Part shown: piece by piece, positions 16,008-52,720 of the stretch
Layout of the letters: the number at the start of each line of letters is the position of its first letter
How positions within the stretch are numbered: position 1 is the stretch's first letter
IMG/VR virus record: IMGVR_UViG_3300032226_000829
Source: a virus
Taxonomy: Duplodnaviria; Caudoviricetes
Direction: 5' to 3' (one strand)
DNA: 64,000 nt
Position numbers and translations under genes: made by a program
The notes under the pieces: generated by a model
Told to the model about the DNA's origin: nothing
The model's database searches: none
The model's input: only the letters and a program-made list of their open reading frames with translations

Positions 16008-16019
16008 GGATTGGAACAT

Positions 16020-18692
16020 ATGAGTTACATAGACGCATTCTTCGATAGAAATCAAGATTTTATTCGTGTGGTAGAACGCAAAGAAGGCAAAAGAATCTAC
16101 AAAGAATATCCCATTAGATACACATTCTTTTATGAAGATGCCAATGGCAAATTCAAAAGCATATATGGCAATTCTCTCAGCAGAATTGTCAGCAAGAGCA
16201 CCAAAGACTTTCATAAAGAATTAGCCATCAATAGAAACAAAAAATTATTTGAATCCGACATCAATCCCATATTTCAATGTCTCAGTGCCAACTACCTCAA
16301 TCACGATGCTCCCAAACTGAATGTGGCATTTTTTGATATAGAAGCAGACTTTGATCCTGAAAAAGGATTCGCTGATCCCTCAGATCCGTTCATGCCAGTC
16401 ACAGCTATCACTGTGTATCTGCAATGGATAGACAGCATGGTGACTTTTGCACTGATTCCTAAAACCTTAACACTTCAACAAGCCAAGGATCAGACCAAAG
16501 ACACAAAGAATTTATATCTGTATGAGCGTGAAGCAGACATGTTGCAGGCATTTTTAGACATAATAGAAGATGTGGATGTGTTGAGCGGTTGGAACTCAGA
16601 AGGTTATGACATGCCTTATCTAGTGAATAGAGTCAGCAAAGTATTGAGTAAAGATGACACTAGACGTTTTTGTTTATGGTCACAGATGCCTAAAAAAAGA
16701 ACATTTGAAAAGTATGGCAGAGAACAAGAAACTTATGATTTAATAGGCAGAGTACACATAGACAGTTTGGAACTGTATAGAAAATATACCTATGAAGAAC
16801 GCCACACATACAGACTGGATGCCATAGGAGAAATTGAATTGGGAGAAACAAAAACTGTGTATGAAGGCACGTTGGATCAACTGTACAACAATGACTTTAA
16901 AACTTTTATAGAATACAACAGACAAGACGTGCAACTGTTGAACAACTTGGATAAAAAACTTAAATTTTTAGATCTCAGCAATGAACTAGCTCATGCCAAC
17001 ACAGTGCTGATGCAAACTACTATGGGTGCTGTGGCAGTGACCGAACAAGCCATCATCAATGAAGCACACAAAAGAGGATTGCAGGTTCCCAATAGACCAC
17101 ACAGATCCGATGAAGAAAACACCACAGCAGCAGGTGCCTATGTGGCATTTCCCAAAAAAGGACTGCATGATTGGATAGGATCCATGGACTTGAATTCACT
17201 GTATCCAAGTGTGATCAGAGCTCTAAACATGGCTCCTGAATGTGTGGTGGGGCAATTGCGTAACACCTACACAGAATCATTTCTACAGGATCAAATAAAT
17301 CTACAAGGCAAATCATTTGCGGCAGCATGGGAGAATAAGTTTGGCAGTTTGGAGTATGAATATGTGATGACTCAAAGACGAGACATGCCTATCACAATAG
17401 ATTGGGAGAATGGTACCACAGAAGAAAAAAGTGGCGCAGAGATTTACAAGATGATATTTGACAGCCACAAGCCCATCATGATCAGTGCCAATGGCACCAT
17501 GTTTACCACAGAGTTTGAAGGTGTGATTCCTGGATTATTAAAAACATGGTATCAAGAAAGAACTGAGATGCAGGCCATGAAAAAGAAAGCACAAAGTGCC
17601 AGCAATCAAGCAGAGATAGAATTTTGGGACAAAAGACAATTGGTTAAAAAAATTAATTTGAACTCACTGTATGGTGCCATACTTAATCCAGGCTGTAGAT
17701 TCTTTGACAAACGCATAGGACAATCAACCACACTCACAGGTAGAACCATCAGCAAACACATGGCAGCAAAAATAAATGAAGTGATCACAGGCACATACGA
17801 TCATTTGGGAGATGCTGTGATATATGGTGATACAGACTCTGCTTATTTCAGTGCTTATAAAGTTTTAAAGAAAGACATTGATGCTGGATTGATTCCATGG
17901 ACCAAAGAGAGTGTGATCAAACTGTATGATCAAGTGGCTGAAGAAGTCAACAACAGTTTTAAAACATTCATGGGTGAAGCATTTCATTGTCCCAAAACAA
18001 GAGCAGAAGTGATTCAAGCAGGACGTGAATCCATCAGTGAAACAGGATTGTTTATCACTAAAAAAAGATATGCTGTGTTGATATATGAATTGGAAGGCGA
18101 TCGTATGGATGTGAATGGTAAACCAGGCAAGGTAAAAGCCATGGGATTGGATCTTAAACGTTCAGACACTCCGGTGTTTGTGCAGGATTTTTTAAGTGAA
18201 ATATTACTGATGGTGCTGACCAAATCAGACGAAAAAGCAGTATTGGAAAGAATCAGCACATTTAGAAATGAATTTAAATTGCGTCCAGGTTGGGAAAAAG
18301 GTTCTCCCAAACGTGCCAACAATGTGGCAGATTATCAAAGAAAAGAAAAAGCACAAGGCAAAGCCAACATGCCAGGACACGTGCGAGCTTCAATCAATTG
18401 GAACACATTAAAACGTATGAACAATGATCGTTACAGTTTGGAAATTGTGGATGGCATGAAAGTGATTGTGTGTAAACTCAGAAACAATCCTTTGGAGTAC
18501 ACCAGTGTGGCCTATCCCACAGATCAATTGAGAATACCTCAATGGTTTAAAGAATTACCTTTTGATCACTCAGCCATGGAAACCACAGTGATCGATAGTA
18601 AATTGGGCAACCTGTTGGGAGTGCTGGATTGGGATATTCAAAGCACAGAAACAGGCAACACATTCAACACATTATTTGACTTTGGAGATTAA
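16020..18692 (+). CDS. Family B DNA polymerase (T4 gp43-like, 890 aa)
   Basis: ExoI FFDIEADF, ExoII GWNSEGYD, ExoIII YNRQDV; pol motifs DLNSLYPS, KINLNSLYG, YGDTDS, KKRY. Confidence 0.97.
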   Translation: MSYIDAFFDRNQDFIRVVERKEGKRIYKEYPIRYTFFYEDANGKFKSIYGNSLSRIVSKSTKDFHKELAINRNKKLFESDINPIFQCLSANYLNHDAPKLNVAFFDIEADFDPEKGFADPSDPFMPVTAITVYLQWIDSMVTFALIPKTLTLQQAKDQTKDTKNLYLYEREADMLQAFLDIIEDVDVLSGWNSEGYDMPYLVNRVSKVLSKDDTRRFCLWSQMPKKRTFEKYGREQETYDLIGRVHIDSLELYRKYTYEERHTYRLDAIGEIELGETKTVYEGTLDQLYNNDFKTFIEYNRQDVQLLNNLDKKLKFLDLSNELAHANTVLMQTTMGAVAVTEQAIINEAHKRGLQVPNRPHRSDEENTTAAGAYVAFPKKGLHDWIGSMDLNSLYPSVIRALNMAPECVVGQLRNTYTESFLQDQINLQGKSFAAAWENKFGSLEYEYVMTQRRDMPITIDWENGTTEEKSGAEIYKMIFDSHKPIMISANGTMFTTEFEGVIPGLLKTWYQERTEMQAMKKKAQSASNQAEIEFWDKRQLVKKINLNSLYGAILNPGCRFFDKRIGQSTTLTGRTISKHMAAKINEVITGTYDHLGDAVIYGDTDSAYFSAYKVLKKDIDAGLIPWTKESVIKLYDQVAEEVNNSFKTFMGEAFHCPKTRAEVIQAGRESISETGLFITKKRYAVLIYELEGDRMDVNGKPGKVKAMGLDLKRSDTPVFVQDFLSEILLMVLTKSDEKAVLERISTFRNEFKLRPGWEKGSPKRANNVADYQRKEKAQGKANMPGHVRASINWNTLKRMNNDRYSLEIVDGMKVIVCKLRNNPLEYTSVAYPTDQLRIPQWFKELPFDHSAMETTVIDSKLGNLLGVLDWDIQSTETGNTFNTLFDFGD

Positions 18693-19232
18693 ATGGCAAG
18701 ATACGGCATGGTAGATTTGGAAACATTAGGCACAAGACCAGATGCTGCCATATTGACTGTGGGTGCTATCAAGTTTGATCCACATTCAGACTCAGAACCC
18801 TACGAAGGTAGATATTGGAGATTAAATGTGGATGAACAAACAGCATTGGGTAGAACAGTGGACGAAGGTACCATTGAATGGTGGGGCCGACAGGCACCTG
18901 AGATACGTGATGAGGCATTGGGAGACACAGATCGTGTGATCATAGCAGACTTTGCCAAAGAATTCAACAAATGGTGTGTGGGATTGGATCAGCTGTGGTG
19001 TCAAGGTCCATTGTTTGATTATGCCATCATACAAAATTTATATGACCAAGCTCGCACTCCTGTGCCTTTCAACTATTGGCAAATCAGAGACAGTCGCACA
19101 CTGTTTGATTTGATGCCACAGGATCCTAGAAAGAGCATGCAGAGCAGTCTACACAACGCATTGGCTGATTGTTACTATCAAGCCAAATGTGTGCAACAAG
19201 TTTTTAAACATTTAGGAGTAAAGAAAAAATGA
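18693..19232 (+). CDS. DEDDh 3'-5' exonuclease (Rv2179c-like)
   Basis: MVDLETLG, GPLFD, RDSRT, HNALAD. Confidence 0.8.
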   Translation: MARYGMVDLETLGTRPDAAILTVGAIKFDPHSDSEPYEGRYWRLNVDEQTALGRTVDEGTIEWWGRQAPEIRDEALGDTDRVIIADFAKEFNKWCVGLDQLWCQGPLFDYAIIQNLYDQARTPVPFNYWQIRDSRTLFDLMPQDPRKSMQSSLHNALADCYYQAKCVQQVFKHLGVKKK

Positions 19233-19960
19233 AAATATTATTGACAGGACATCTAGGGTTTATAGGCAGTGCTTTGTACAATGAACTGATCAAAGAACAC
19301 ACAGTGATAGGCATAGACATCAAAGATGGCAAAGATTTATTAACTTGTGATTTGAATTACACAGTGGATCTTGTGATACATTTGGCAGGAATAGCTTCTG
19401 TAAGAGATAGTCTTAAAGATCCTTTAAAATACTGGCATAATAATGTGTTGGCCAGTCAAAAAGTATTTGATTCATTTAAAGACACAAGAATTATATATGC
19501 TAGTTCCAGTTCAGCTGTTGAACCATCATTAAATCCTTATGGATTTAGTAAATTTGCTCTTGAAAAAATTGCACCAAAAAACAGTTTGGGTTTAAGATTT
19601 ACCACTGTGTGGGCTGAAGATGGCCGCTCAGATATGTTTATGTCAAAATTATTTAAAAATAATATTCAATACATCACTAACCATCATAGAGATTTTGTAC
19701 ATGTGTCTGACATAATATCAGCAATTAAATTATTAATGAACAAAGACATCACAGGAGTAATGGATGTAGGTACCGGAATCAGCAACAGTTTAAAAATTTT
19801 GGTTGATTTAGCAGGCATCAAGAATTATGAATCCGAATTAGGTGACGTATATGAAAGAATGGACAATTGTGCCGATATCAAAGAATTAAGAGATTTAGGT
19901 TGGGAACCAAAAGTTAACGTGATTAATTACATAAAAAACAAATATCACTTGACTTCTTAG
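19229..19960 (+). CDS. NAD-dependent nucleotide-sugar epimerase/dehydratase
   Basis: TGHLGFIG, IHLAG, YASSSS, YGFSK (YxxxK), RDFVHV. Confidence 0.85.
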   Translation: MKILLTGHLGFIGSALYNELIKEHTVIGIDIKDGKDLLTCDLNYTVDLVIHLAGIASVRDSLKDPLKYWHNNVLASQKVFDSFKDTRIIYASSSSAVEPSLNPYGFSKFALEKIAPKNSLGLRFTTVWAEDGRSDMFMSKLFKNNIQYITNHHRDFVHVSDIISAIKLLMNKDITGVMDVGTGISNSLKILVDLAGIKNYESELGDVYERMDNCADIKELRDLGWEPKVNVINYIKNKYHLTS

Positions 19961-19977
19961 CCAGGCCTAAATATAAT
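19949..19977 (+). promoter_or_regulatory. sigma70 promoter with overlapping late TAAATA
   Basis: TTGACT (19949-19954), 17 nt, TATAAT (19972-19977); TAAATA 19968-19973. Confidence 0.85.
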
Positions 19978-20001
19978 GCATATAACACAACGGAGAACAA
20001 A

Positions 20002-20730
20002 ATGAAAGACATCTTACAAGACGTGGTAGCACACACTCATCAACTGGGGTTTTTGAGTCTAGTGAAAGTTACCAATGAAGAACAAACTAAAATTGAAAGC
20101 ATGGCTGAAGACAGATCAGTTATTCTTTCAGCAACAACCAATAACAAAGTGATGGAATTCACAGGCACATTTGGTATGCCTAACTTGGACAAACTATCAT
20201 TACATTTGAAATGTCCTGAGTATCAAAAAGATGCCAAATTAAATGTGGTCAAAGCCACACGCAATGGCGTGGAAATTCCCACACACATTCACTTTGAAAA
20301 TGCATCAGGTGATTTCCAAAATGATTACAGATTTATGAACACTGAGATTATCAATGAAAAATTGAAATCAATCAAATTCAAAGGTACATCTTGGAACATC
20401 GAGTTTGAACCAGCTCTTGCTAGTATTCAAAGATTAAAATTGCAAGCGGCAGCACACACAGAAGAAACTGTGTTCACAGTTAAAACTGAAAATAAAAATT
20501 TAATGTTTTACTTTGGTGATGCAAACTCTCATGCAGGAAGTTTTACTTTTCAAGCCAATGTGGCGGGTGAATTAAAACAAGGTTGGAGTTGGCCTATTCA
20601 ACAAGTGATTAGTATATTAAATCTTGATGGCAAAATCAAAATGAAGATTAGTGATCAAGGTGCTATGCAAATTTCTGTGGATAGCGGTATTGCTGAATAC
20701 AATTACATATTGCCAGCACAGACCAAATAA
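20002..20730 (+). CDS. Probable sliding clamp (gp45/PCNA-like, 242 aa)
   Basis: Size, two-domain alternating helix/strand pattern and C-terminal YNYILPA strand typical of clamps; replication-gene context; no diagnostic motif. Confidence 0.5.
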   Translation: MKDILQDVVAHTHQLGFLSLVKVTNEEQTKIESMAEDRSVILSATTNNKVMEFTGTFGMPNLDKLSLHLKCPEYQKDAKLNVVKATRNGVEIPTHIHFENASGDFQNDYRFMNTEIINEKLKSIKFKGTSWNIEFEPALASIQRLKLQAAAHTEETVFTVKTENKNLMFYFGDANSHAGSFTFQANVAGELKQGWSWPIQQVISILNLDGKIKMKISDQGAMQISVDSGIAEYNYILPAQTK

Positions 20731-20756
20731 ATTAAGGCAAGTAAAATAGTAAAATT

Positions 20757-22220
20757 ATGCACACTGACTTAACAGCACAGCAAAAAGACTATGCAGTGTT
20801 TCTGCCGGCGTTGAGCAGTTTCTATGCAAGAGATTTGGGCAAGGCCAGACATGAGAAGGATTATATCCTGCCTCACAGAATTCCGGCTGCTTTTAATCAT
20901 GGCATAGAAGGCATGAATTATCTTGTGCCCACCAACACATATTTTCATTACAGATGGCATTTGTACAGTGCAGGTCATGCTGACTTGAACATGGACAAAT
21001 TTAGTGCCAGAGATGACATCATAAGAAATCGAGATAGAAAAACCAGTTTTGTACTGGGTGATTCAGGAGGGTTTCAGATTGGTAAAGGAGTATGGGAAGG
21101 CAATTGGAAAGATCCCACTTGTCCTCGAGCCAAGAAGAAGCGAGAACAGGTGCTCACTTGGATGGATGCCAACATGGATTATGGTATGATATTGGATATT
21201 CCAGCATGGGTTTCACGTTCTCCAGAAGGTGCCAAAGCCAGCAATATCAACTCCTATCAGGAAGCAGTGGATGGCACAAGAATCAATAATGATTACTTCA
21301 TGAAGACTAGAACAGGTGCTTGTAAGTTTTTAAATGTGCTGCAAGGTGAAAACTTTCAACAAGCAGATGATTGGTATCAGCAGATGAAAGATTACTGCGA
21401 TCCTAAAAAATATCCCACAACTCACTTTAATGGTTGGGCAATGGGTGGTCAGAACATGTGTGATGTGCATCTTATATTGAAAAGATTAGTGGCATTAAGA
21501 TTTGATGGTTTATTAGAAAAAGGCATTCATGATTGGATGCATTTTTTAGGCACATCCAAACTGGAATGGGCAGTGCTATTGACAGACATCCAAAGAGCAG
21601 TAAGAAAATATCACAATCCAAACTTTACTGTGTCATTTGATTGTGCTTCACCTTTCTTAGCATCAGCCAATGGACAAATTTACACAGAAGTGGATGTCAG
21701 AGACAAACAAAAATGGTCATATAGAATGGCTGCCAGCATAGATGATAAAAAATATGCCGGTGACACCAGAGCATTTAGAGATGCTGTGTTACAAGAAAAG
21801 ATATTTGACAATTTTCAAGACAGTCCTATCAGTAAAAGATTACAGTTGAAAGATGTCACTTGTTATGCTCCAGGAGATAAAAACAAAGTGGGCGGTGATC
21901 CCAAAACATCTTGGGATTCATTCAGTTATACCTTACAAATGGCACACAATGTTTGGACACACATCAATGCTGTGCAAGAAGCCAACAGACAGTATGATGC
22001 AGGATTAACTCCACGCATGTTGGTGGAAGAAAAGTTTGATAAAGTGGCATTCAAAGACATAGTGGAAGCAATATTTGCCACAGACAACAGAGACACAGCA
22101 GAAGCAGTGATTGAGGAATACAGCAGATTTTGGATGAGTATCATAGGTACCAGAGGCGCCACAGGCAAAAAAACAGTGAATGCTTCAACACAGTTTTCTA
22201 ACTTATTTGAGGAGGTATAA
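20757..22220 (+). CDS. dpdA: DpdA/TGT-like guanine transglycosylase (487 aa)
   Basis: TGT-fold motifs GDSGGFQ, ILDIP, NVLQG, GWAMGG, HFLG, SFDCAS, AHN; sits with queD/folE/queE; canonical CxCxxC Zn motif not evident. Confidence 0.75.
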   Translation: MHTDLTAQQKDYAVFLPALSSFYARDLGKARHEKDYILPHRIPAAFNHGIEGMNYLVPTNTYFHYRWHLYSAGHADLNMDKFSARDDIIRNRDRKTSFVLGDSGGFQIGKGVWEGNWKDPTCPRAKKKREQVLTWMDANMDYGMILDIPAWVSRSPEGAKASNINSYQEAVDGTRINNDYFMKTRTGACKFLNVLQGENFQQADDWYQQMKDYCDPKKYPTTHFNGWAMGGQNMCDVHLILKRLVALRFDGLLEKGIHDWMHFLGTSKLEWAVLLTDIQRAVRKYHNPNFTVSFDCASPFLASANGQIYTEVDVRDKQKWSYRMAASIDDKKYAGDTRAFRDAVLQEKIFDNFQDSPISKRLQLKDVTCYAPGDKNKVGGDPKTSWDSFSYTLQMAHNVWTHINAVQEANRQYDAGLTPRMLVEEKFDKVAFKDIVEAIFATDNRDTAEAVIEEYSRFWMSIIGTRGATGKKTVNASTQFSNLFEEV

Positions 22221-22221
22221 T

Positions 22222-22416
22222 ATGAGTAAGAAAAATAAAAGTTTAAAGAAATTAGAACATGAGTTTGATTACTATCATAGAAAAACTGAAGAAATGGAAC
22301 AAGAGCGAGAACATGATAGAAGTTGGGAGAGTAAAGCATTATTAAAGAATTATAAGAAAATTAAACTGGCAATCAAAACACAGATAGAAGAATACAGAAA
22401 ACAATTAAAAGCATGA
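22222..22416 (+). CDS. Small coiled-coil protein (64 aa; start reassigned)
   Basis: GAGGAGG SD before ATG 22222. Confidence 0.75.
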   Translation: MSKKNKSLKKLEHEFDYYHRKTEEMEQEREHDRSWESKALLKNYKKIKLAIKTQIEEYRKQLKA

Positions 22417-23300
22417 AAACATTGGTTATAGGATTGGGTATTGGACAATTGTATGTTAGAGTCTTAACACAGTTGGGTCATACAGTATTCACAGTGGATC
22501 CTGATCAAAACAAACAAGCCACATTCACAAATTTAAAAACAGCTCTATTGGCTCATCCCAAATTGGATGCAGTGTTCATATGCACTCCTAATTATACACA
22601 TGATTCAATAGCTCAAACAGTTGCACCACACAGTAGAGTGGTATTTGTAGAAAAACCAGGAGTGCTTAATTCTAAAAGATGGCAGAGTCTTCAACTCACA
22701 TATCCAAACGCTAAATTTATCATGATGAAAAACAATATGTGGCGCACAGTGGAAGAAGAAATGCGTATTAGAATAGATGATGCTGAAGAAATACATATTA
22801 ATTGGATCAATCGTAATAGAGTGCCTGCACCAGGCAGTTGGTTTACCACTAAAAAATTATCATTTGGTGGAGTCAGCAGAGATCTTATGCCACATTTATT
22901 GAGTATGTTCATCTGGTTGAATCCTGATACATATTCTCAATATCAAATAGTTTCTTCCAATCGTAAACAAAATTGGAAATTAAGTGATCTTACTGATACA
23001 GAATATGGTGCAGTAAATTTAGATGGCACATATGATGTGGATGATTGGGCTGAAATGGTGTTCAATAACGGTAAAAAAACATTCAAACTTACTGCTGATT
23101 GGCGCAGTATGGACAAAGATGACAGAGCACTGCACTGTTATAAAAGAGAAAAATTAATTAAAAGTTTTGAACTAGGATTATGTCCTGAATCAGCTTATGC
23201 TGCAATGATTCAAGATGTTTTCAATAATATTAACCATGAAGAGTTTTGGAATCAACACAAGCAGTATGATGTGTGGATTCATAATTTAATCAATGACTGA
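22413..23300 (+). CDS. Gfo/Idh/MocA-family oxidoreductase
   Basis: VIGLGIG Rossmann, CTPNYTH, VEKP, DLMPH. Confidence 0.8.
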   Translation: MKTLVIGLGIGQLYVRVLTQLGHTVFTVDPDQNKQATFTNLKTALLAHPKLDAVFICTPNYTHDSIAQTVAPHSRVVFVEKPGVLNSKRWQSLQLTYPNAKFIMMKNNMWRTVEEEMRIRIDDAEEIHINWINRNRVPAPGSWFTTKKLSFGGVSRDLMPHLLSMFIWLNPDTYSQYQIVSSNRKQNWKLSDLTDTEYGAVNLDGTYDVDDWAEMVFNNGKKTFKLTADWRSMDKDDRALHCYKREKLIKSFELGLCPESAYAAMIQDVFNNINHEEFWNQHKQYDVWIHNLIND

Positions 23301-24201
23301 AACTAAACTGTTATACACCAAAGGAGATGGCATGTTTCATGAAGGAACCATTGACATTCCTGCAGTGAAAGATAATCAGATTCAAGTAAAAAATATCATG
23401 ACAGGAGTATGTCGCAGTGATGTGGACATGATGTTGGGCAAATTCAAAACATTACCATTAAACATGCAAGGTCATGAAGGATTGGCTCAGGTCACACAAG
23501 TGGGTGCTCATGTGCGAGATGTTCAGGTGGGAGATCATGTGGCTACCAGAGGTGAACCTGCTTATGCTGATATTTACAATTGTGATTTTGAAACTTATGT
23601 TAAAGTTCCCACAGCAGATCCCAAATACATTGTGGAACCTGTGGCATGTGGCATTAATGTGATCAAACAATTTGAAACTGCCATTGCTCACAAAGCCAAC
23701 TACAACAGTAGACTGCTGCTGATAGGCAGTGGATTTTTATCCTATGTGGTTTACACCTATCTAAAAATAAAAAATTATCATTTTGATATCACTGTGTTGG
23801 GCAATCATAACAAACAGTTTTGGGGAGATAAACTCACTCACAATGCTGAAGGCGTGTTTGATGTTATTATAGATTTGAACAACAGATCAGAGGTGTTTGA
23901 CAAGAACATGTTTAACACTGAAGCATTGTTGATACTGGCTGCTGAAAAAACAGAATCCATTCGCACTAATTTTGCTGATTTATTATGGAATGCTGTAACA
24001 GTAGGCTTTCCTAGTCCTAGAAATAAAAAATTTATAGAGTGCATGCGTGAAGCAGTGGAATTAATCTCTGCAGGCAAACTGGATGTGTCTAATTTTTGGA
24101 CCAAAGGTTACAGCAGAAGCACAGAGTGGAACAATGCATTTGCAGATGCTACAAATAGAAAAAATGGCTATGCCAGAGGTTATATAGATTGGAGAAAATA
24201 A
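23293..24201 (+). CDS. Zn-dependent medium-chain dehydrogenase (sugar/polyol type)
   Basis: GVCRSD, GHEG, EPVAC, LIGSG. Confidence 0.85.
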   Translation: MTETKLLYTKGDGMFHEGTIDIPAVKDNQIQVKNIMTGVCRSDVDMMLGKFKTLPLNMQGHEGLAQVTQVGAHVRDVQVGDHVATRGEPAYADIYNCDFETYVKVPTADPKYIVEPVACGINVIKQFETAIAHKANYNSRLLLIGSGFLSYVVYTYLKIKNYHFDITVLGNHNKQFWGDKLTHNAEGVFDVIIDLNNRSEVFDKNMFNTEALLILAAEKTESIRTNFADLLWNAVTVGFPSPRNKKFIECMREAVELISAGKLDVSNFWTKGYSRSTEWNNAFADATNRKNGYARGYIDWRK

Positions 24202-24722
24202 TGTTGGACACACAATCAAGAAAAAAAGTAAAATTTTTTATAGGCAAAGAAGTGGAGAACACTGCTATGAAAGATCAAACCACACTGTTTGTGGTGGGTG
24301 TACAAAACGTGGTGAATATTATAAAGTACATCATGCAAACTGATGTGGAACATGTGTATCTAGGAACCAGTCAAAGTTTTACTCCCAACTCCAAAGAAGA
24401 ATGGCAGGATTGGAATAATTTGATCAATAAATTATTGGAAGGTGGTTATTGGGTTACATTGGATTATGATGTGCAATATGCTGAAGAAGTCAGCAAAATG
24501 AACTGGCATCTAAACAATCACTTTATCAATATGATATCTGTCAAAATACCCAATATCAAAGTATTCAATGCCAACACAGTGATCAAATTGGATGATGTCA
24601 CTTGGGGTGCTACCAATACAGGAGTTTGGACACATGATTTGGAAAAATTAATGACCAAAAAAACCTATACAGATTGGAGTGAATACAAAGGAGATCACCC
24701 TATAGACATTGACAGTGATTAA
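24201..24722 (+). CDS. Hypothetical protein in the deazaguanine cluster (173 aa; start reassigned)
   Basis: taATG coupling to the dehydrogenase; alpha/beta pattern (HVYLG, WVTLD). Confidence 0.75.
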   Translation: MLDTQSRKKVKFFIGKEVENTAMKDQTTLFVVGVQNVVNIIKYIMQTDVEHVYLGTSQSFTPNSKEEWQDWNNLINKLLEGGYWVTLDYDVQYAEEVSKMNWHLNNHFINMISVKIPNIKVFNANTVIKLDDVTWGATNTGVWTHDLEKLMTKKTYTDWSEYKGDHPIDIDSD

Positions 24723-24750
24723 AAAAGTTGTTATACTATAAACCTAAATA
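24709..24750 (+). promoter_or_regulatory. sigma70 promoter plus downstream late TAAATA for queD-GT
   Basis: TTGACA (24709-24714), 17 nt, TATACT (24732-24737); TAAATA 24745-24750. Confidence 0.8.
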
Positions 24751-24759
24751 CTGAAACAC

Positions 24760-25161
24760 ATGAGCAATTTAAAATCTAAAATTTGGGTTACATTTCGCAG
24801 AGAAGGCATACACAAGTATCCTGCAGCATTAACAGATCCAAAATTAAAAACTGGTGATGAATATGATGTGAGTTTTTTGGGTTATCCTCACAGACACATA
24901 TTTCATTTTAAGGTGGCTATTGAAGTGTTTCATGATGATAGAGACATTGAGTTTATACAGTTTAAAAGATGGTTGGAAAACTTGTATGGCAAAGGCACAT
25001 TAGAGTTGGATTATAAAAGTTGTGAAATGATTGGCGCTGATCTTTATCAACAGATCAATTCAAGATATCCCAATAGAGAAGTCACAATAGACGTGAGCGA
25101 AGATGGTGAGAACGGTGCCACAATGACTTGGGCAGCCAATTCATCCATAACAATCAACTAG
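24760..25161 (+). CDS. queD: QueD-like 6-carboxytetrahydropterin synthase (T-fold)
   Basis: Zn ligand pattern EGIH...HRH and SCE glutamate; 133 aa; folE/queE context. Confidence 0.7.
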   Translation: MSNLKSKIWVTFRREGIHKYPAALTDPKLKTGDEYDVSFLGYPHRHIFHFKVAIEVFHDDRDIEFIQFKRWLENLYGKGTLELDYKSCEMIGADLYQQINSRYPNREVTIDVSEDGENGATMTWAANSSITIN

Positions 25162-25169
25162 GGCGGGCC

Positions 25170-26261
25170 ATGAAGATTTACATTGTGGATCTAGAAGAAG
25201 TAGAAACTAGATATACCAAACAATGGAAAAAATATCTACCCATTCAATTAAAAAGACACACCAATAATGAAATCCAAGTGATCAGCGGAGGAAATGCTGT
25301 GAAAAGTACCACCCCGGGTGCTTTTTTAAACTTTGGATTCACCAACATGTACAAGAGCAGACAATTGGAACAGATTGCTGAAATGTTCTGCAATGGAGAT
25401 ATCAAAGATGGTGATTATTTCTTATACACTGATGCTTGGAATCCCACAGTGCTGCAACTCAAGTACATGGCAGAATTATTAAATGTAAAAATTAAAATAG
25501 GTGGCATGTGGCACGCAGGATCATATGATCCACAAGACTTTTTGGGCAGACTGATAGGTGATAAACCTTGGGTGCGTCTGGCTGAACGCAGCATGTTTGA
25601 ATCATTTGATCACAATTACTTTGCCACTGATTTTCATATTGATATGTTCTTACACAATTTGATGGATCTGGGCAGACTGGCTGACAAAGAAACTGTGGAT
25701 CAAATGTTTCACACAGGCAAAATAGTGAGATCGGGATGGCCCATGGAATATTTGGATGCTGACTTGACTGGTTATAAAAACATTGAAAAAAAGAATATTA
25801 TTCTTTTCCCGCATAGATTGGCTCCGGAAAAACAACACAACATATTTCAAGATTTGGCAAAAGAAATGCCACAGTATGAATTTGTCACTTGTTTGGATCG
25901 TTGCCAGTCAAAAAATGACTATCACAATCTTTTAGCAGAAGCCAAATTGATTTTCAGTGCTAATTTACAAGAAACATTAGGAATCAGTTGGTATGAAGGT
26001 GCAGTATTAGGAGTTATTCCAATGATTCCTGATCGTTTAAGTTACAAAGAAATGGCTCAAGAAGAATTCAAATATCCTTCAGAATGGACAGAATCTTTTG
26101 AGCTGTATAAGAAACACAAAGATTTGTTAAAAGCAAGAATAGATGACTATATGATCAACTACAAAAAGTATGCTCCATTGGTACACAAACAAAAAATATC
26201 ATTGGCTGAAAACTTTTTTAGTGGCAAACAACTTTACCAAAGGATTACAAATGGAAAATAA
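25170..26261 (+). CDS. GT-B glycosyltransferase (GT4-like, 363 aa; start reassigned)
   Basis: WHAGSYDP, FPHRLAPEK, QETLGISWYEG (Ex7E), YKEM. Confidence 0.8.
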   Translation: MKIYIVDLEEVETRYTKQWKKYLPIQLKRHTNNEIQVISGGNAVKSTTPGAFLNFGFTNMYKSRQLEQIAEMFCNGDIKDGDYFLYTDAWNPTVLQLKYMAELLNVKIKIGGMWHAGSYDPQDFLGRLIGDKPWVRLAERSMFESFDHNYFATDFHIDMFLHNLMDLGRLADKETVDQMFHTGKIVRSGWPMEYLDADLTGYKNIEKKNIILFPHRLAPEKQHNIFQDLAKEMPQYEFVTCLDRCQSKNDYHNLLAEAKLIFSANLQETLGISWYEGAVLGVIPMIPDRLSYKEMAQEEFKYPSEWTESFELYKKHKDLLKARIDDYMINYKKYAPLVHKQKISLAENFFSGKQLYQRITNGK

Positions 26262-26622
26262 AACTTTAGAACAAAATCAACCAGACAGCACAACGTATAA
26301 AGTAGATATAAACTATCAAGCAAATGTGGGCACAAATAACATTGTGGCCAGCACAGTGAGCGTGCCATATGGATTTGGTGGATCAGGCAATGGTGTTACT
26401 ACCACAGGCATAGATTTTGAAGCAGATGCAATGAAAGGTATAAACTTTGAGGATTACAAACTGCCTATTATGTTTGAGGATATCATGCCTGAAATGCACA
26501 AAATAAAAGAAATGTGTGAGTTGTATCCGTCATTGGATATTGCTTTTCAAAAATTTAAAAATGTTTACAATATTGTGATAGATGATTATGACAATAAAAT
26601 GCAACTGAAAATGCCTTTTTAA
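26251..26622 (+). CDS. Hypothetical protein (123 aa; start reassigned)
   Basis: AAGGA SD before ATG 26251. Confidence 0.7.
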   Translation: MENKTLEQNQPDSTTYKVDINYQANVGTNNIVASTVSVPYGFGGSGNGVTTTGIDFEADAMKGINFEDYKLPIMFEDIMPEMHKIKEMCELYPSLDIAFQKFKNVYNIVIDDYDNKMQLKMPF

Positions 26623-26623
26623 T

Positions 26624-27079
26624 ATGGAAACAGCCAATAAAAATTATTTTACCATGATCCAGATGCGTGCAGCTCTGCTGAATATACATCAGCAATTGAC
26701 TGAACAACAATGGCAACCTCAGGTAATATTAGGATTAAACAGAGGAGGATGTATTCCTGCTATCTATTTGTCACACAAATTGGATGTTCCTCATCATGTG
26801 TTAAATGTAAGTTTACGAGATCATGCTGATACTCCTGATTTACACACATTGGAAAAAGTATATGCTTGGCAAAAAAGAGTATTGATAGTGGATGATATCA
26901 ATGATACAGGTGCCACATTTAATTATATTATGAATAACTTTGGCAAACCAGAAAGATTAAAGTTTGCTGTGATATTGCACAACACAGTGAGCACCTACAA
27001 AGATATAGATTACAAAGGTTATGAAATCAACAAACTGGAAGATCCACGTTGGATAGTGTTTCCTTGGGAGCAATGGTAG
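26624..27079 (+). CDS. Type I purine phosphoribosyltransferase (Gpt-like)
   Basis: LNRGG, PRPP loop VLIVDDINDTGAT, C-terminal WIVFPWE. Confidence 0.85.
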   Translation: METANKNYFTMIQMRAALLNIHQQLTEQQWQPQVILGLNRGGCIPAIYLSHKLDVPHHVLNVSLRDHADTPDLHTLEKVYAWQKRVLIVDDINDTGATFNYIMNNFGKPERLKFAVILHNTVSTYKDIDYKGYEINKLEDPRWIVFPWEQW

Positions 27080-27080
27080 T

Positions 27081-27458
27081 ATGGAAAAAATTGACACTTT
27101 GAATCAAGCTCAAAAAGAAGGCAGAGCTCCTTGGACCAAAGTGATATATGATTTGAAAGATTGTGTGTGGTATGAGGATGGATATCCTGTGACTGAAGGA
27201 CATGCATTGCTGGTACCCAAACAAGCCAGTCAAAATATGATTGTGAAATGTTTTGAATTAGCATTAAAAATTGGCAATGAAAATATTGCCAAAGGTTTGA
27301 TTGACGGCTACAACATAGGTATCAACATGGGCGAGGCAGCAGGTCAAACTGTTCCTTATCCGCATGTTCATTTGATTCCAAGACGCAAGGGTGACATGGA
27401 AGATCCTAGGGGTGGGGTACGGCATGTGATCCCTCACAAAGGAAATTATAAAAAATGA
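27081..27458 (+). CDS. HIT-family nucleotide hydrolase
   Basis: YPVTEGHALLVPK, GEAAGQTV, HVHLIP. Confidence 0.9.
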   Translation: MEKIDTLNQAQKEGRAPWTKVIYDLKDCVWYEDGYPVTEGHALLVPKQASQNMIVKCFELALKIGNENIAKGLIDGYNIGINMGEAAGQTVPYPHVHLIPRRKGDMEDPRGGVRHVIPHKGNYKK

Positions 27459-28282
27459 GCAGAGCACTTTTCATAGGAGACAGTCACACTTGTGGATATG
27501 TCACTGTGCCTAACAAAACAGGTCCAGGCAGTTATACCTATTGGAATGATAACAACTATGCTGAAATTTACAACACAGTGAACGATAAACCCGTGAGTAT
27601 CTATGCACATGCTGGAACTGTCAATAGAATGTACACTGATTGGATGAAACACATGTTTAACACATTTCCAGACACCGATGAAGTTTTTCTTTGTTTGGCT
27701 CCATTGAATAGATTTGTGTTGGCTTTTGATGAGAAACTCACAGATGAAGCACTGCCTTTGGATTATTTTGTGCATGAATGTGTGGAAAGCACACCCACAG
27801 TAAAAAAGTATATGGATTTATTGGTCAAAGAAGGCAGAGTGCAATTATACAACAAACCCACAGCAGAAGATTATGAAAAATTTCCAGGTTTAAAAATTTC
27901 TGAAACAGATGGATTGCAACAACCGGACATAAGAAAAAACACATTTATGGAGATAAAATTATTTTTTGAATTGAACACACATTTGGAAAGACGTGATTTT
28001 TTATTGAATGTGTTTGCTTGGGATAGAATTTGTGCTGAAAACAATGCCAAACTTTATGTGTTTAATTTTATGAATAGATTGAAATGGCCCAAGAGTTTGG
28101 AATATTACGGTGCATTAAAAAATACCACAGTAGCAAAAAAAACTGTTGAGCAATATATGTTGGACAATGGCATTGATCCTCAAAAATATTTGCTGCATGA
28201 CAAAGAACATTACAATACAGAATATCACAAAACGATTGTGGAAAGATACATACCATGGCTAAAAAATCAAAAAAAATCCTAA
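27455..28282 (+). CDS. SGNH/GDSL-like protein (275 aa)
   Basis: FIGDSHT block I; C-terminal DKEH (DxxH). Confidence 0.55.
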   Translation: MSRALFIGDSHTCGYVTVPNKTGPGSYTYWNDNNYAEIYNTVNDKPVSIYAHAGTVNRMYTDWMKHMFNTFPDTDEVFLCLAPLNRFVLAFDEKLTDEALPLDYFVHECVESTPTVKKYMDLLVKEGRVQLYNKPTAEDYEKFPGLKISETDGLQQPDIRKNTFMEIKLFFELNTHLERRDFLLNVFAWDRICAENNAKLYVFNFMNRLKWPKSLEYYGALKNTTVAKKTVEQYMLDNGIDPQKYLLHDKEHYNTEYHKTIVERYIPWLKNQKKS

Positions 28283-28872
28283 TCATTGGTGATAGTTTTG
28301 CTTGTGAGTGGCCCAATGGCCTTGCTGGATGGCCCGCTCAGTTGGCTCAACAACATGATGTGACCAATTTGGCTCAGGCAGGTGTGGGCGAATATAAAAT
28401 ATTAAGACAACTGCTAAACTTTACCAAAGAAAATCCTTGGTGGCAGCATGACTATGATTGTGTGATTGTGTGTCATACCAGTCCCAGCAGAGTACACACT
28501 CCCGTTCATCCCATACACAAAGAAGGACTGCACAAAGATTGTGATCTCATATGGAATGACATTGAATCTCGCAACAGTTGGTTCAATAAAAGTTTAGACA
28601 CTGCTAAAAATTGGTTCAAGTATCACTATGATGATCAATACCAAAAAGACATCTACAGATTGATACGCAGAGATATCAACAGAAAACTGGAGCAAATCAC
28701 CAGTTTACACATAGATAATTTTGGTATCAGTAACCATTTTGTTGAGGAACAGAATCTGTTGGACTTCAGTATGATCTGGCCTAACTACAGAGGAGAAATT
28801 AATCATTACAATGATGAAGGAAACCAAATTGTTTTGGCACAAATCATTGACAAACTGGAACAAATCTGTTAA
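28255..28872 (+). CDS. SGNH/GDSL-like protein (205 aa)
   Basis: IIGDSFA, NLAQAG, C-terminal NHY..EGN. Confidence 0.55.
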   Translation: MAKKSKKILIIGDSFACEWPNGLAGWPAQLAQQHDVTNLAQAGVGEYKILRQLLNFTKENPWWQHDYDCVIVCHTSPSRVHTPVHPIHKEGLHKDCDLIWNDIESRNSWFNKSLDTAKNWFKYHYDDQYQKDIYRLIRRDINRKLEQITSLHIDNFGISNHFVEEQNLLDFSMIWPNYRGEINHYNDEGNQIVLAQIIDKLEQIC

Positions 28873-28875
28873 AAT
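28847..28875 (+). promoter_or_regulatory. sigma70 promoter for folE-queE
   Basis: TTGACA (28847-28852), 17 nt, TAAAAT (28870-28875) with TGn; AAGGAG SD follows. Confidence 0.8.
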
Positions 28876-28895
28876 AGTACAATATAAGGAGTATA

Positions 28896-29582
28896 ATGAA
28901 AGTATCAGAAAAGATTAAACAAAGACTGATTGAGGCTGGTGTGAATTATCATGCTGATGATAATATTTCAGCCTATGTTGAAAAAGATGAACTGGTTCTA
29001 TTGGAAAAAGAATTAACAGAATCATTCAAATCTGTTTTAAACAGTCTTGTGATTGATACTGAAAATGATCCTAATAGTAAAAACACAGCACACAGACTGG
29101 CCAAGATGTATTTGAAAGAATTAATGAGTGGAAGATATGAATCCAGACCTGATGCCACAGCATTTCCCAATGTGGGAGAAAATGCCTACACAGGCATGTT
29201 GGTGGTGCGTAGTGAATTAAAATCAGTGTGCAGTCATCATCATCAACCAGTGAGCGGAGTAGCATACATTGGAATCATACCCAATGGCAAAGTGATAGGA
29301 TTGAGCAAATACACAAGAATAGCACAATGGTGTGCTAGAAGAGGCACACTGCAAGAAGCACTGTGCAATAACATTGCCAATGAGATTGAAATGGCCACTG
29401 GAGCCAAAGATCTAGGAGTGTACATACAAGCCACACATGGCTGTTGTGAAAACAGAGGCATAATGGCACACAGTTCATTGACTCAGACCACTGTGTTAAA
29501 AGGTGCTTTCAAAGATGATGCTGGCACTAAAAAAGAATTTATGGATAATATTAACCTGCAACAACAATTTGCACCAAGATAG
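28896..29582 (+). CDS. folE: GTP cyclohydrolase I
   Basis: CSHH, GLSKYTR, LQE, HGCCENRG. Confidence 0.95.
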   Translation: MKVSEKIKQRLIEAGVNYHADDNISAYVEKDELVLLEKELTESFKSVLNSLVIDTENDPNSKNTAHRLAKMYLKELMSGRYESRPDATAFPNVGENAYTGMLVVRSELKSVCSHHHQPVSGVAYIGIIPNGKVIGLSKYTRIAQWCARRGTLQEALCNNIANEIEMATGAKDLGVYIQATHGCCENRGIMAHSSLTQTTVLKGAFKDDAGTKKEFMDNINLQQQFAPR

Positions 29583-29591
29583 GAGACACAG

Positions 29592-29795
29592 ATGACCAAT
29601 AAAGAAGGACCATTTTACGCAGCATTCGGAGGTGATACCACAGGTATTATCAAACAAGAATTAATCACTTACAAAGTTAAAGATGGTGTGCTGTACAAAG
29701 AAACAGTGAAGAGAGATTATCACAGCCAAGGAGATTACATTGATTCATGTGAGTCAATTCCTTTGAAAGAAAACAAACATGAACATACAGCCTAA
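29592..29795 (+). CDS. Hypothetical protein (67 aa)
   Basis: AGGAG SD. Confidence 0.7.
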   Translation: MTNKEGPFYAAFGGDTTGIIKQELITYKVKDGVLYKETVKRDYHSQGDYIDSCESIPLKENKHEHTA

Positions 29796-29946
29796 AGACA
29801 CCAGTAAAGGTCATTTCTATGTGTCACTAATCAAGAGTGCATTTAGAATCATTGCAGGCATTAGTTTAATATTTGGTAACTTTATTACTGCTGGATTTTT
29901 ATTCATACTGGCAGAATTATTAGGAGTGGTAGAGGAATTAGTATAA
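29779..29946 (+). CDS. Small membrane protein (55 aa), not in the ORF track
   Basis: Hand translation MNIQPKDTSKGHFYVSLIKSAFRIIAGISLIFGNFITAGFLFILAELLGVVEELV; stop overlaps the queE ATG. Confidence 0.75.
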   Translation: MNIQPKDTSKGHFYVSLIKSAFRIIAGISLIFGNFITAGFLFILAELLGVVEELV

Positions 29947-30806
29947 TGAGCAAAATTAAAATAGCAGAATTATTTTACAGCATACAAGGAGAAGGCAGGT
30001 ACATGGGTGTGCCTTCAGTGTTCTTGAGAACATTTGGCTGCAACTTTACTTGTGCTGGCTTTGGTTTGCCTCGAGGCATGCGTAGTGATGAGAATGACAA
30101 AGTATTTGAACAGCACAAACAATTTCCTTTTAAAAGCTATGAAGAATTGCCATTGGTGAACACAGGCTGTGATTCGTATGCATCTTGGGATCCTCGATTC
30201 AAAGATTTATCTCCCATGCTGACATCAGATGCTATTGTGGAAAGAACAATGGAAATATTGCCACACAAACAATGGGTGGATGAACATTTTATATTCACAG
30301 GCGGTGAACCATTGCTGGGTTGGCAACGTGCTTATCCAGATGTATTGGAACATGCAAAGATGCAGGCTTTAAAAGAGATCACTTTTGAAACCAATGGCAC
30401 ACAAAAACTACACAAAGATTTTAAAGATTATTTGACTCAATGGAATCAGAAGAATGGTAGAACTAAAGAATCCATATCATTCTCTGTGAGTGCAAAATTA
30501 AGTGTGAGCGGAGAAAAACGTGAAGAAGCTATACTGCCTGAAGTGGTGGCAGAATATGGAGATGTAGGGCATGTGTATTTGAAATTTGTGGTGGCCACCA
30601 AGGAAGATGCTGATGAGGCATTCCAAGCAGTGGCTGATTATCGTAAAGCAGGATTCTCGGGATCAGTTTATTTGATGCCTGTGGGTGGAGTAGAAAGTGT
30701 CTATCATATGAACAATAGAACAGTGGCAGAACTGGCAATGAAGATGGGATATAGATACAGTGATAGATTACAAGTGCCATTGTTTAAAAACGCATGGGGT
30801 ACATAA
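29946..30806 (+). CDS. queE: QueE 7-carboxy-7-deazaguanine synthase (radical SAM)
   Basis: ELFYSIQGEG, FLRTFGCNFTC...GCDS, TGGEPL, ETNGT, SAK, RLQV. Confidence 0.9.
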   Translation: MSKIKIAELFYSIQGEGRYMGVPSVFLRTFGCNFTCAGFGLPRGMRSDENDKVFEQHKQFPFKSYEELPLVNTGCDSYASWDPRFKDLSPMLTSDAIVERTMEILPHKQWVDEHFIFTGGEPLLGWQRAYPDVLEHAKMQALKEITFETNGTQKLHKDFKDYLTQWNQKNGRTKESISFSVSAKLSVSGEKREEAILPEVVAEYGDVGHVYLKFVVATKEDADEAFQAVADYRKAGFSGSVYLMPVGGVESVYHMNNRTVAELAMKMGYRYSDRLQVPLFKNAWGT

Positions 30807-51902: not shown

Positions 51903-52720
51903 GTAACACAGAGCAATTAAAAACAATTTACGAAACCAGTGTGTTCAAAAACATATTGCATCTAGTTGATGATGTGTATTTTCCTTTGGCCAGCCAGTGG
52001 AAAAACATTGGCGTCAGTGTGAGTGGTGGTGCTGACAGTGCTTTAATGGCATATCTGCTGTGTGATTTGATTGACAAAAATCAGTTGAATATCACTGTGC
52101 ATATTATTACCAATGTTAGATGTTGGAAAACCAGACCTTGGCAGCGTCATAACAGCATGGAAGTTTATAACTGGTTGACTGATGAATTTAAAAACATAAA
52201 ATTTAAAAGACACGAAAATTTTATTGCTCCTGAACTGGAATGGGGATCCAAAGGACCCAGCATTGTGGATGAATATGGTAGATTAAAGAGTGGCAATCAA
52301 ATAGAACTAAGAGCACATGCTGAATATGTGGCTCACACAAAAAAATTAGATGCTTGGTACTGTGGAGTGACCAAGAATCCCGATAAAGAATTTGATCATC
52401 GTCTCACTGACAGAGATGTGTTGCTCGACACATTGTCTGACACAGTGCTGGACAGATTAATCAAAGCACACATGGGCGGCTATGCTTGTCACCCTTTCAC
52501 TTATGTGCAGAAAGATTGGATAGTTGCCCAATATAAAAAATTAGGCATAATGGACCTATTTGATCTCACTCGCAGTTGTGAAGGTGACCGCGACACATCA
52601 CCTAAAATCTTTGGAGACTTGGACTACAGGACTTATGTGCCGGGGCAGCCCGTGCCTGTGTGTGGAGAATGTTTTTGGTGTCAAGAGCGACAATGGGGAG
52701 TAGACAGTGTCAGACCATAA
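51899..52720 (+). CDS. QueC-like PP-loop ATPase with Zn site
   Basis: VSVSGGADS; TRSC...CGECFWCQER. Confidence 0.7.
   Translation: MSNTEQLKTIYETSVFKNILHLVDDVYFPLASQWKNIGVSVSGGADSALMAYLLCDLIDKNQLNITVHIITNVRCWKTRPWQRHNSMEVYNWLTDEFKNIKFKRHENFIAPELEWGSKGPSIVDEYGRLKSGNQIELRAHAEYVAHTKKLDAWYCGVTKNPDKEFDHRLTDRDVLLDTLSDTVLDRLIKAHMGGYACHPFTYVQKDWIVAQYKKLGIMDLFDLTRSCEGDRDTSPKIFGDLDYRTYVPGQPVPVCGECFWCQERQWGVDSVRP

Follow-up and report, generated by a model that had tools for sequence, protein, structure and literature searches.

A probable QueC-less, DpdL-type 7-deazaguanine DNA-modification cassette with a linked GT4-type glycosyltransferase in the replication module of an uncultured freshwater jumbo phage

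The 64,000-nucleotide stretch of DNA analyzed here (IMG/VR virus record IMGVR_UViG_3300032226_000829; Duplodnaviria, Caudoviricetes; hereafter the window) belongs to an uncultured freshwater jumbo phage whose sequence is known from lake-water metagenome contigs, and it carries a gene cluster that is very probably a QueC-less, DpdL-type cassette for the modification of DNA with 7-deazaguanine. Between 16 and 32 kb, the window consists of one block of co-directional genes, all on the + strand, as are the small ORFs and promoter-like matches within it. The block begins with the genes for a family B DNA polymerase (PolB, 16011-18692), an Rv2179c-like 3′-5′ exonuclease, a short-chain dehydrogenase/reductase (SDR), a sliding clamp, a protein resembling tRNA-guanine transglycosylase (TGT), and a 78-residue open reading frame (ORF). 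These are followed by the genes for a Gfo/Idh/MocA oxidoreductase, a Zn-dependent dehydrogenase, a 173-residue protein, DpdL, a glycosyltransferase (GT), a small ORF, a phosphoribosyltransferase (PRTase), and a HIT-family protein, and then by those for two proteins with a GDS motif, FolE, a 67-residue ORF, QueE, and a 5′-3′ exonuclease. The cassette sits between the DNA polymerase/clamp genes and the 5′-3′ exonuclease gene, that is, in the replication module. Families were assigned with Pfam, PHROGs, and NCBIfam. An earlier model-made reading of the letters alone (the sequence-only reading) had proposed a 7-deazaguanine DNA-modification cluster here; all of its ORFs were recovered at the same positions on the + strand, and the proposal is supported in the form of a QueC-less cassette in the replication module. 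A megablast search with the cluster against phage records gave no match.

The gene at 24760-25161 encodes a 133-residue T-fold protein that is identified as DpdL, a paralog of QueD, by its motif and by a profile match. The motif LxxxHRHxF, which replaces the CxxxHGH of QueD, is the defining signature of DpdL (Cui, Hutinet et al., NAR 2023, PMC10516641). The corresponding residues of the 133-residue protein (L40, H44, R45, H46, and F48) do not vary among 18 homologs, a leucine stands where QueD has its catalytic cysteine, and no match to the PTPS family (PF01242) was obtained even at E 10. Its profile matched DpdL of phage phiST (CGPG_00067; hhalign, 98.8%, E 1e-16) and gave no match with phiST QueD (CGPG_00071), and the protein is 55% identical to DpdL of phage ACP17. 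The gene had been taken for queD in the sequence-only reading, an identification that gives way to DpdL on all three grounds, namely the LxxxHRHxF motif, the match to the phiST DpdL profile, and the missing PTPS match. DpdL is the proposed decarboxylase that converts 7-carboxy-7-deazaguanine (CDG) to 7-deazaguanine, an activity that has only been proposed, for phiST and ACP17 alike, and 7-deazaguanine replaces all G in phiST DNA (PMC10516641). As this T-fold protein is DpdL, 7-deazaguanine is the base to be expected rather than CDG, ADG (7-amido-7-deazaguanine), or preQ0, so that the insertion of one of the latter three, as earlier suggested, is unlikely.

Canonical QueD, QueC, QueF, and a TGT detectable with Pfam were sought in five related records, namely those of the phages PA5oct, Phosso, and ACP17, a 223-kb contig of the same phage family (G003), and a 116-kb fragment (G002). 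A canonical QueD is encoded elsewhere in the genome in four of the five (PA5oct, Phosso, ACP17, and the 223-kb contig); the 116-kb record, the closest relative searched and a fragment only, gave no PTPS match. QueC, QueF, and a Pfam-detectable TGT were found in none of the five, and the window ORFs scanned gave no match to PTPS or QueC. The lack of QueC and QueF remarked on in the sequence-only reading therefore extends to the five related records, at least as far as these families can be detected. By analogy with the related genomes, the present phage probably encodes QueD outside the window and probably lacks QueC. A PP-loop ORF at 51899-52720 with the motif SGGADS had no Pfam match.

The 487-residue protein encoded at 20757-22220 is, on its predicted fold and motifs, a divergent transglycosylase of the TGT/DpdA superfamily. 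An AF2 model built on 34 diverse homologs reached a pLDDT of 91.9, and the top 50 Foldseek matches of this model were tRNA-guanine transglycosylases throughout. In a VIA comparison with 48,161 chains, the top five were ArcTGT (Z 17.5), QTRT2 (17.2), TGT (16.5), DpdA 7ui4 (15.1), and Cap10 (14.6), and the next TIM barrels, at Z 11.4, fell well under the TGT superfamily. Residues D102, S103, and G105 (in GDSGGFQ), G226, H262, G265, and D295 (in FDCASP) are invariant in the 34 homologs. In an hhalign alignment with Escherichia coli Tgt, the motifs fall on TDSGGFQ, GYAVGG, and MFDC, with D102 and D295 at the positions of the catalytic aspartates. The earlier call of a DpdA/TGT-fold transglycosylase is thus borne out by the fold, the Z scores, and the aspartate motifs. 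Because no cysteine is invariant in the 34 homologs, the zinc site of TGT (CxCxxC...H) is not conserved in this family. No sequence or profile match was found in Pfam (PF01702, TGT), NCBIfam, or the PDB, and the kinship is visible by fold comparison only. The match to phiST DpdA3 (CGPG_00065) is partial (hhalign, 79.7% over 86 columns), and tblastn with the 487-residue protein matched neither phiST nor a Campylobacter phage. The protein forms a separate branch of the TGT/DpdA superfamily, and it is predicted to exchange guanine in DNA for deazaguanine. Like bacterial and phage DpdA (Salmonella DpdA 7ui4 and DpdA1/2, which insert preQ0 or ADG), it would follow the logic of a TGT-fold DNA transglycosylase; unlike DpdA, it has neither a Pfam TGT match nor conserved zinc-site cysteines, no DpdB or DpdC partner was seen, and preQ0 or ADG is not expected here, there being no QueC.

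The family of this TGT-like protein is very large: of 8000 candidates scored in a 90% cluster database, 7970 gave a match, and clustering at 50% identity left 981 representatives. Four members (P0131, P0194, P0198, and P0210; 580-752 residues) are 100-260 residues longer, their match being split into two to four stretches; the extra parts contain no Pfam domain, hence no informative fusion, and could be insertions or mobile elements within the gene. Two phage contigs of about 33 kb (L093, 1074-2405; L094, 10001-11332) carry a 37%-identical TGT-like gene near integrase and head genes, with no other cassette gene within 10 kb. Such a lone enzyme may use a base made by the host or act on another substrate.

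The cassette is a variant of the known DpdL-type deazaguanine system with added genes. As in the phiST system (FolE, QueD, QueE, DpdL, and DpdA3; PMC10516641), a QueC-less pathway ending at CDG is combined with a DpdL bearing LxxxHRHxF and with an inserter of the TGT superfamily, and the cassette adjoins DNA polymerase genes. It differs from phiST in that the inserter belongs to the 487-residue branch and in that it has four additions, namely a GT of the GT4 type, the 173-residue protein, the purine PRTase, and the HIT protein, joined in some lineages by the Gfo/Idh/MocA and Zn-dependent dehydrogenases, the SDR, and the GDS-motif proteins; phiST instead has a MazG-like pyrophosphatase. Another counterpart is found in the Pseudomonas jumbo phage PA5oct (Wroclawvirus; EST35_0316-0322), where PolB, clamp, TGT-like (35.6% identity), GT (44%), DpdL (57%), PRTase, QueE, and 5′-3′ exonuclease genes are syntenic with those of the window, and which likewise has a canonical QueD elsewhere and no QueC that could be found. 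The PA5oct locus lacks the Gfo/Zn-dehydrogenase pair, the HIT gene, and the GDS-motif genes, and its homolog of the 173-residue protein lies 27 kb off.

FolE (GTP cyclohydrolase I, 228 residues, 28896-29582) matches Pfam at 6e-41 and PHROG 2197 at 2e-45, and QueE (radical-SAM CDG synthase, 286 residues, 29946-30806) matches the QueE-like PHROG 2076 at 6e-50 as well as Pfam Radical_SAM; the NCBIfam QueE models match the latter at 3.5e-13, below the cut-offs of those models. From established pathway knowledge, FolE and QueE, together with a QueD encoded elsewhere, would convert GTP to CDG. DpdL would then decarboxylate CDG to 7-deazaguanine, as proposed in the literature, where this step is a proposal for phiST too, and the TGT/DpdA-like enzyme, judging from its fold and motifs, would exchange guanine in DNA for the deazaguanine. 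The PRTase (151 residues, 26624-27079; Pfam Pribosyltran, 2e-14) is of the 6-oxopurine (xanthine-guanine) type and matches the purine PRTase 1vdm over its full length (8.5e-15) and E. coli XGPRT (5e-7) in the PDB. Its simplest role is the salvage of the guanine freed by base exchange, which it probably turns into GMP, feeding FolE again. The HIT-family nucleotide hydrolase/transferase (125 residues, 27081-27458; Pfam HIT, 7.5e-12) matches HIT proteins of the PDB at 1e-8 and retains the H-V-H motif. FolE and QueE (Pfam, PHROG) and the PRTase and HIT protein (Pfam, PDB profile matches) all agree with their earlier assignments.

That the core members include a PRTase for purines and a nucleotide hydrolase of the HIT family would also suit a route at the nucleotide level, such as those to tubercidin and toyocamycin, in which PRTases act on deazapurine bases. 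The PRTase would join CDG or 7-deazaguanine to phosphoribosyl pyrophosphate, the HIT protein and host kinases and reductases would process the product, and the polymerase would incorporate 7-deaza-dGTP, which is a good polymerase substrate, leaving the TGT-like enzyme and the GT with secondary or different roles. The MazG-like enzyme of phiST, a dNTP pyrophosphatase encoded beside DpdL, would fit such a route. We nevertheless regard it as improbable: the closest relatives of the PRTase are common enzymes of guanine/xanthine salvage, the TGT-like enzyme retains both catalytic aspartate motifs, and every deazaguanine-bearing phage studied encodes DpdA, the published model being post-replicative insertion (PMC10516641).

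The GT gene lies directly behind dpdL, as the sequence-only reading had it in calling a GT-B enzyme behind the T-fold gene; the alignment of homologs places the conserved start at the ATG at 25170, the real start, which yields a protein of 363 residues (25170-26261). Its predicted structure (pLDDT 83) has the two Rossmann domains of the GT-B fold. The best Foldseek match was BshA (6e-10), and the highest VIA Z scores were those of sucrose-phosphate synthase (23.9), BshA (23.5), PglA (21.5), and PimA (20.9), with glycogen synthase and MshA also near. The tetrahydrobiopterin (BH4) glucosyltransferase 5zer (19.7), the GT of phage HY126 (17.9), and DNA-bound T4 AGT (17.6) scored lower. An EX7E motif (E268-x7-E276), R216, and K221 are invariant in 18 homologs, which fits an active enzyme using a nucleotide-diphosphate sugar if the residues have the roles they have in other GT4 enzymes. 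The Pfam Glycos_transf_1 score of 19 bits is under the cut-off of 26.4, and 11 of the 18 homologs give weak matches; sequence and profile searches of the PDB gave no match for the GT, DpdL, or the 173-residue protein. On its modeled fold and motifs, the protein is a genuine GT4-type GT-B enzyme.

What the GT acts on was considered against three known groups of enzymes. With T4 AGT and BGT and other phage GTs that act on 5-hydroxymethylcytosine, it shares the GT-B fold, a phage genome, and a place inside a base-modification pathway. In contrast to these, its greater similarity is to GT4 enzymes that act on small molecules (Z 21-24), its presumed acceptor is a purine analog instead of hydroxymethylcytosine, and no hydroxymethylase is seen in the cluster; a DNA-acting GT is not its best structural match, T4 AGT ranking 34th and BGT falling outside the top 50. 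QTMAN (GTDC1), the mannosyltransferase of queuosine in tRNA, is likewise of the GT4 type and shows that a deazaguanine base can bear a sugar, and bacterial clusters with QTMAN_N count among the non-viral proteins closest in shape (TM 0.73-0.74). The similarity is, however, no better than to other GT4 families, whose clusters reach 0.74-0.80, and QTMAN lies outside the top 30 Swiss-Prot models. The QTMAN_N profile (PF12038) matched neither the 18 GT homologs at E 10 nor the five related genomes at E 1, and a QTMAN-like identity was not confirmed beyond general GT4 similarity. The acceptor of QTMAN is the cyclopentenediol of queuosine in RNA, which the present pathway cannot make.

The third group is represented by the cyanobacterial UDP-glucose:tetrahydrobiopterin glucosyltransferase. 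FolE and QueD are established to make pterin intermediates, and 5zer is among the structural matches, so that the GT might be a pteridine glycosyltransferase that acts on a FolE/QueD pterin and not on a deazapurine. This we consider highly improbable, as the match to 5zer is no better than those to about 20 other GT4 families, CPH4, the pterin of the pathway, lacks a polyol side chain that could be glycosylated, and the linkage of the GT is with DpdL and the TGT-like gene, not with QueD, whose gene is found in another part of related genomes.

Linkage was examined in a presence/absence matrix of 80 contigs retrieved with the TGT-like protein and in a second set of 80 contigs retrieved with the GT; the counts given here are from the GT-centered contigs and relate the loci with a gene to the loci that reach far enough. 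In the TGT-retrieved matrix, the clamp, the 173-residue protein, DpdL, the GT, the PRTase, FolE, and QueE were always seen where the contig reaches. Around the GT, DpdL was present at 75/75 loci and the TGT-like gene at 57/57, while the PRTase, FolE, and QueE were each present at 37/37; the 173-residue protein was found at 71 of 72 loci and the HIT protein at 32 of 37. The Gfo and Zn-dehydrogenase genes, which always occur as a pair, were present at 16/57 loci, and the GDS-motif proteins of 275 and 205 residues at 22/37 and 7/37, respectively.

The same association recurs in cultured phages. TGT-like, GT, and DpdL genes are neighbors in PA5oct (with PolB, clamp, PRTase, and QueE), in ACP17 (with FolE, a homolog of the 173-residue protein, and QueE), and in BUDD (with QueE); in BCSR5 the GT adjoins the TGT-like gene, with DpdL also neighboring. 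In Phosso, DpdL, GT, FolE, and QueE genes lie in this order next to PolB, and the TGT-like gene is far away. The TGT-like proteins of ACP17, BUDD, and BCSR5 are related to the 487-residue protein at the profile level only (93-96%), and this recurrence in cultured phages of other types is more telling than the contig counts. The GT does not, then, assort independently of the TGT-like gene (57/57, with DpdL at 75/75, and the neighborhoods of ACP17, BUDD, BCSR5, and PA5oct), whereas the oxidoreductases, which the sequence-only reading had likewise linked to the transglycosylase, do assort separately, the Gfo/Zn-dehydrogenase pair being found at 16/57 loci.

The GT is fixed in some DpdL lineages and absent from others. 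DpdL occurs without it in phiST, which makes plain 2′-deoxy-7-deazaguanosine (dDG), and in the Rhizobium phage RHph_I1_18, whose DpdL is 62% identical and has no GT nearby. Conversely, a 24%-identical homolog of the GT in the Xanthomonas phage PhiXhv-15 (L096, 6873-10107) has GlmS and a deacetylase of the BshB/LmbE type as neighbors and no deazaguanine genes close by, in what looks like a module for transfer of N-acetylglucosamine followed by deacetylation. From the DpdL systems without a GT and the PhiXhv-15 homolog without deazaguanine genes, it follows that the GT is an add-on to the DpdL pathway. In RHph_I1_18 (L178, 7405-10336), a macro-domain (Appr-1-p processing) protein and a 422-residue “DUF3310” protein stand by DpdL in place of the GT, and the latter might be the inserter of that phage.

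Because the GT is fixed in the cassette, its most likely action would be to add a sugar to deazaguanine, either on the free base before insertion or in DNA. No other single explanation accounts for the GT as well as transfer of a sugar to the deazaguanine base, which we put forward tentatively, as somewhat short of probable. The attachment of a sugar to a deazaguanine, already suggested by the sequence-only reading, thus gains from the fixed place of the GT, but the base is revised and the oxidoreductases prove to be optional. Glycosylated deazaguanines are already known in RNA as the mannosyl- and galactosyl-queuosine of animal tRNA. PA5oct DNA resists cleavage at G-containing restriction sites and is cut by nucleases that sense modified G, which shows that G is modified and not which base is present (PMC12191111). 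No paper describing a glycosylated deazaguanine in DNA was found in the literature searched.

Several points weigh against a sugar on the base. 7-Deazaguanine offers neither a hydroxyl nor an amine at C7 as the acceptor; the sugar would therefore have to sit at a different position, be added to an earlier intermediate, or be joined by a C-glycosidic bond. A C-glycoside is conceivable at C7, an electron-rich pyrrole carbon. GT4 enzymes are, however, retaining O-glycosyltransferases, and the known C-glycosyltransferases are inverting enzymes of GT1. The structures nearest to the GT act on small molecules, with T4 AGT lower (Z 17.6 versus 23.9); DpdL systems without a GT and a GT homolog without deazaguanine genes both exist, as described above; the phages behind the co-occurrence counts are relatives, so that the events counted are not independent; and the present phage, being uncultured, is known from contigs alone.

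Much of this would be accommodated if the DNA contained plain dDG, as in phiST, or another small derivative, with the GT and the sugar redox enzymes serving a protein, the precursor of an envelope or virion glycan, or a metabolite, and merely riding in an early replication operon. phiST makes dDG with DpdL and DpdA3 and without a GT, RHph_I1_18 has DpdL with no GT nearby, the closest relatives of the GT are small-molecule GT4 enzymes (BshA, sucrose-phosphate synthase, and MshA), and its PhiXhv-15 homolog stands apart from deazaguanine genes. We judge this explanation rather unlikely, since it leaves unexplained why at least four phage lineages of different genome types have the GT next to DpdL and the TGT-like gene, whose TGT-like proteins have diverged past BLAST detection and which have yet kept the placement of the GT, and it does not account for the co-occurrence at 75/75 and 57/57 loci.

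Among the accessory genes, the Gfo/Idh/MocA oxidoreductase (295 residues, 22413-23300; Pfam GFO_IDH_MocA) has as its best PDB profile match DgpA, a C-glycoside 3′′-dehydrogenase (5.7e-11), followed by other sugar and inositol dehydrogenases; DgpA reportedly oxidizes the 3′′-hydroxyl of the sugar in C-glycosides. The Zn-dependent medium-chain dehydrogenase/reductase (302 residues, 23293-24201; Pfam ADH_N, 3e-10, and weak NCBIfam matches to the same superfamily) shows the GHE and Cys motifs. Because the two always co-occur, a two-step oxidation and re-reduction of the attached sugar is a reasonable interpretation, and where present, the pair would act in this way, the Gfo protein as a glycoside 3-dehydrogenase. 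That the pair sets the donor sugar of the GT was considered and dropped, as the division of the GTs into subgroups (DAWNPT and DAWHPG) does not follow the presence of the pair. On a short unrelated metagenomic contig (L095, 671-2920), a 30%-identical TGT-like gene is directly followed by a 43%-identical Gfo/Idh/MocA gene, and the adjacency of TGT and Gfo is therefore older than the present phage family.

The short extended-SDR NAD epimerase/dehydratase (243 residues, 19229-19960; Pfam Epimerase, 4e-19; PHROG 540, nucleotide-sugar epimerase, 5e-40) has both the GxxGxxG and the YxxxK motif and is accessory, occurring in some relatives only in the presence/absence matrix. Pfam (with PHROG for the SDR) upholds the earlier assignments of all three oxidoreductases. 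The accessory proteins of 275 residues (27455-28282, N-terminal GDSH motif) and 205 residues (28255-28872, N-terminal GDS motif, possibly SGNH/GDSL-like) have no Pfam or PDB match, and of the four SGNH blocks only the N-terminal GDS motif is visible. The 205-residue protein has an Atlas feature score, a language-model similarity, of 0.96 to phage clusters partly with DUF6071 or Lipase_GDSL. Of the two SGNH-like proteins proposed earlier, the N-terminal GDS motif is present in both, no family match was obtained, and cluster similarity exists for the 205-residue protein only; the calls are weak, and the O-acylation of the sugar that was built on them loses its footing. The SDR and the GDS-motif proteins may provide further lineage-specific tailoring.

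Taken as a whole, the best explanation would be a DpdL-type cassette in which CDG is made, decarboxylated, and exchanged into DNA, the released guanine is salvaged, a sugar is added by the GT, and the sugar is reshaped in some lineages; we hold this tentatively, as only slightly less than probable. It is also possible, though doubtful, that the virion DNA of the present phage family, PA5oct, ACP17, BUDD, and BCSR5 bears a glycosylated 7-deazaguanine, perhaps a C7 C-glycoside formed by the GT4 enzyme, with the sugar reshaped in some lineages by the DgpA-like 3-dehydrogenase and the Zn-dependent dehydrogenase.

To our knowledge, the natural DNA glycosylations are all on pyrimidines, namely hydroxymethylcytosine, hydroxymethyluracil, 5-hydroxycytosine, and base J. 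If the above is true, it would be the first report, for any DNA, of a purine that bears a sugar and would add a new class of DNA hypermodification; new enzymology would come with it, in that a GT4 enzyme would have a deazapurine as its acceptor and might form a C-C bond. There would also be consequences for restriction, for CRISPR, and for nucleases that sense modifications, such as those of the END family, which targets PA5oct. The cassette is very abundant, as its TGT-like protein has thousands of metagenomic homologs. The question can be put to a direct test in relatives that are in culture, among them a Pseudomonas phage that is a candidate for therapy.

The 173-residue protein (24201-24722) is counted as a core member of the cassette on its conservation. 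It had been left without a family in the sequence-only reading, in agreement with which it has no Pfam or PDB match and weak Atlas leads. Homologs occur in PA5oct and ACP17; the Phosso “glycosylase”, phiST CGPG_00066, and two BUDD proteins were compared as further homologs and rejected. Three small ORFs have no family match: one of 78 residues (22180-22416), 45-100% conserved in close relatives; one of about 123 residues (26251-26622), whose conservation is weak and patchy; and one of 67 residues (29592-29795), kept in close relatives only.

The 242-residue protein at 20002-20730 is probably the sliding clamp (PHROG 12062; 32-35% identity to PA5oct and Phosso genes annotated as PCNA or sliding clamp) and as such would be part of the replication module and not of the modification chemistry. 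The earlier description of a clamp beside the block is right as to the protein, and its position is inside the interval. The Rv2179c-like 3′-5′ exoribonuclease-domain gene (18693-19232; Pfam, 1e-35) abuts the 3′ end of the DNA polymerase gene and is kept in closer relatives only. Three sigma-70-like matches precede genes of the block: TTGACT-17-TATAAT at 19949-19977, upstream of the clamp gene and a consensus match only; TTGACA-17-TATACT with TG at 24709-24737, upstream of dpdL; and TTGACA-17-TAAAAT with TG at 28847-28875, upstream of folE. These sites, previously described as strong promoters, are indeed the three best sigma-70 matches in 16-33 kb, each 11/12 and each just before a gene, but the total of promoter-like matches is not above that of shuffled sequence (55 versus 60.3).

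The phage is widespread in fresh water: the interval 20757-26261 of the window occurs almost whole, with 70-100% of the sampled words recovered, in the lake-water metagenomes of 17 separate studies. Relatives at about 70% identity are present in marine (Tara) data. Elsewhere in the window, and with no link seen to the deazaguanine cassette, positions 39385-64000 form a dense radical-SAM island in which Radical_SAM was matched by 7 of the 10 ORFs scanned, two of these having SPASM domains and one an HMPTM zinc ribbon, accompanied by a class III aminotransferase and the PP-loop ORF mentioned above.

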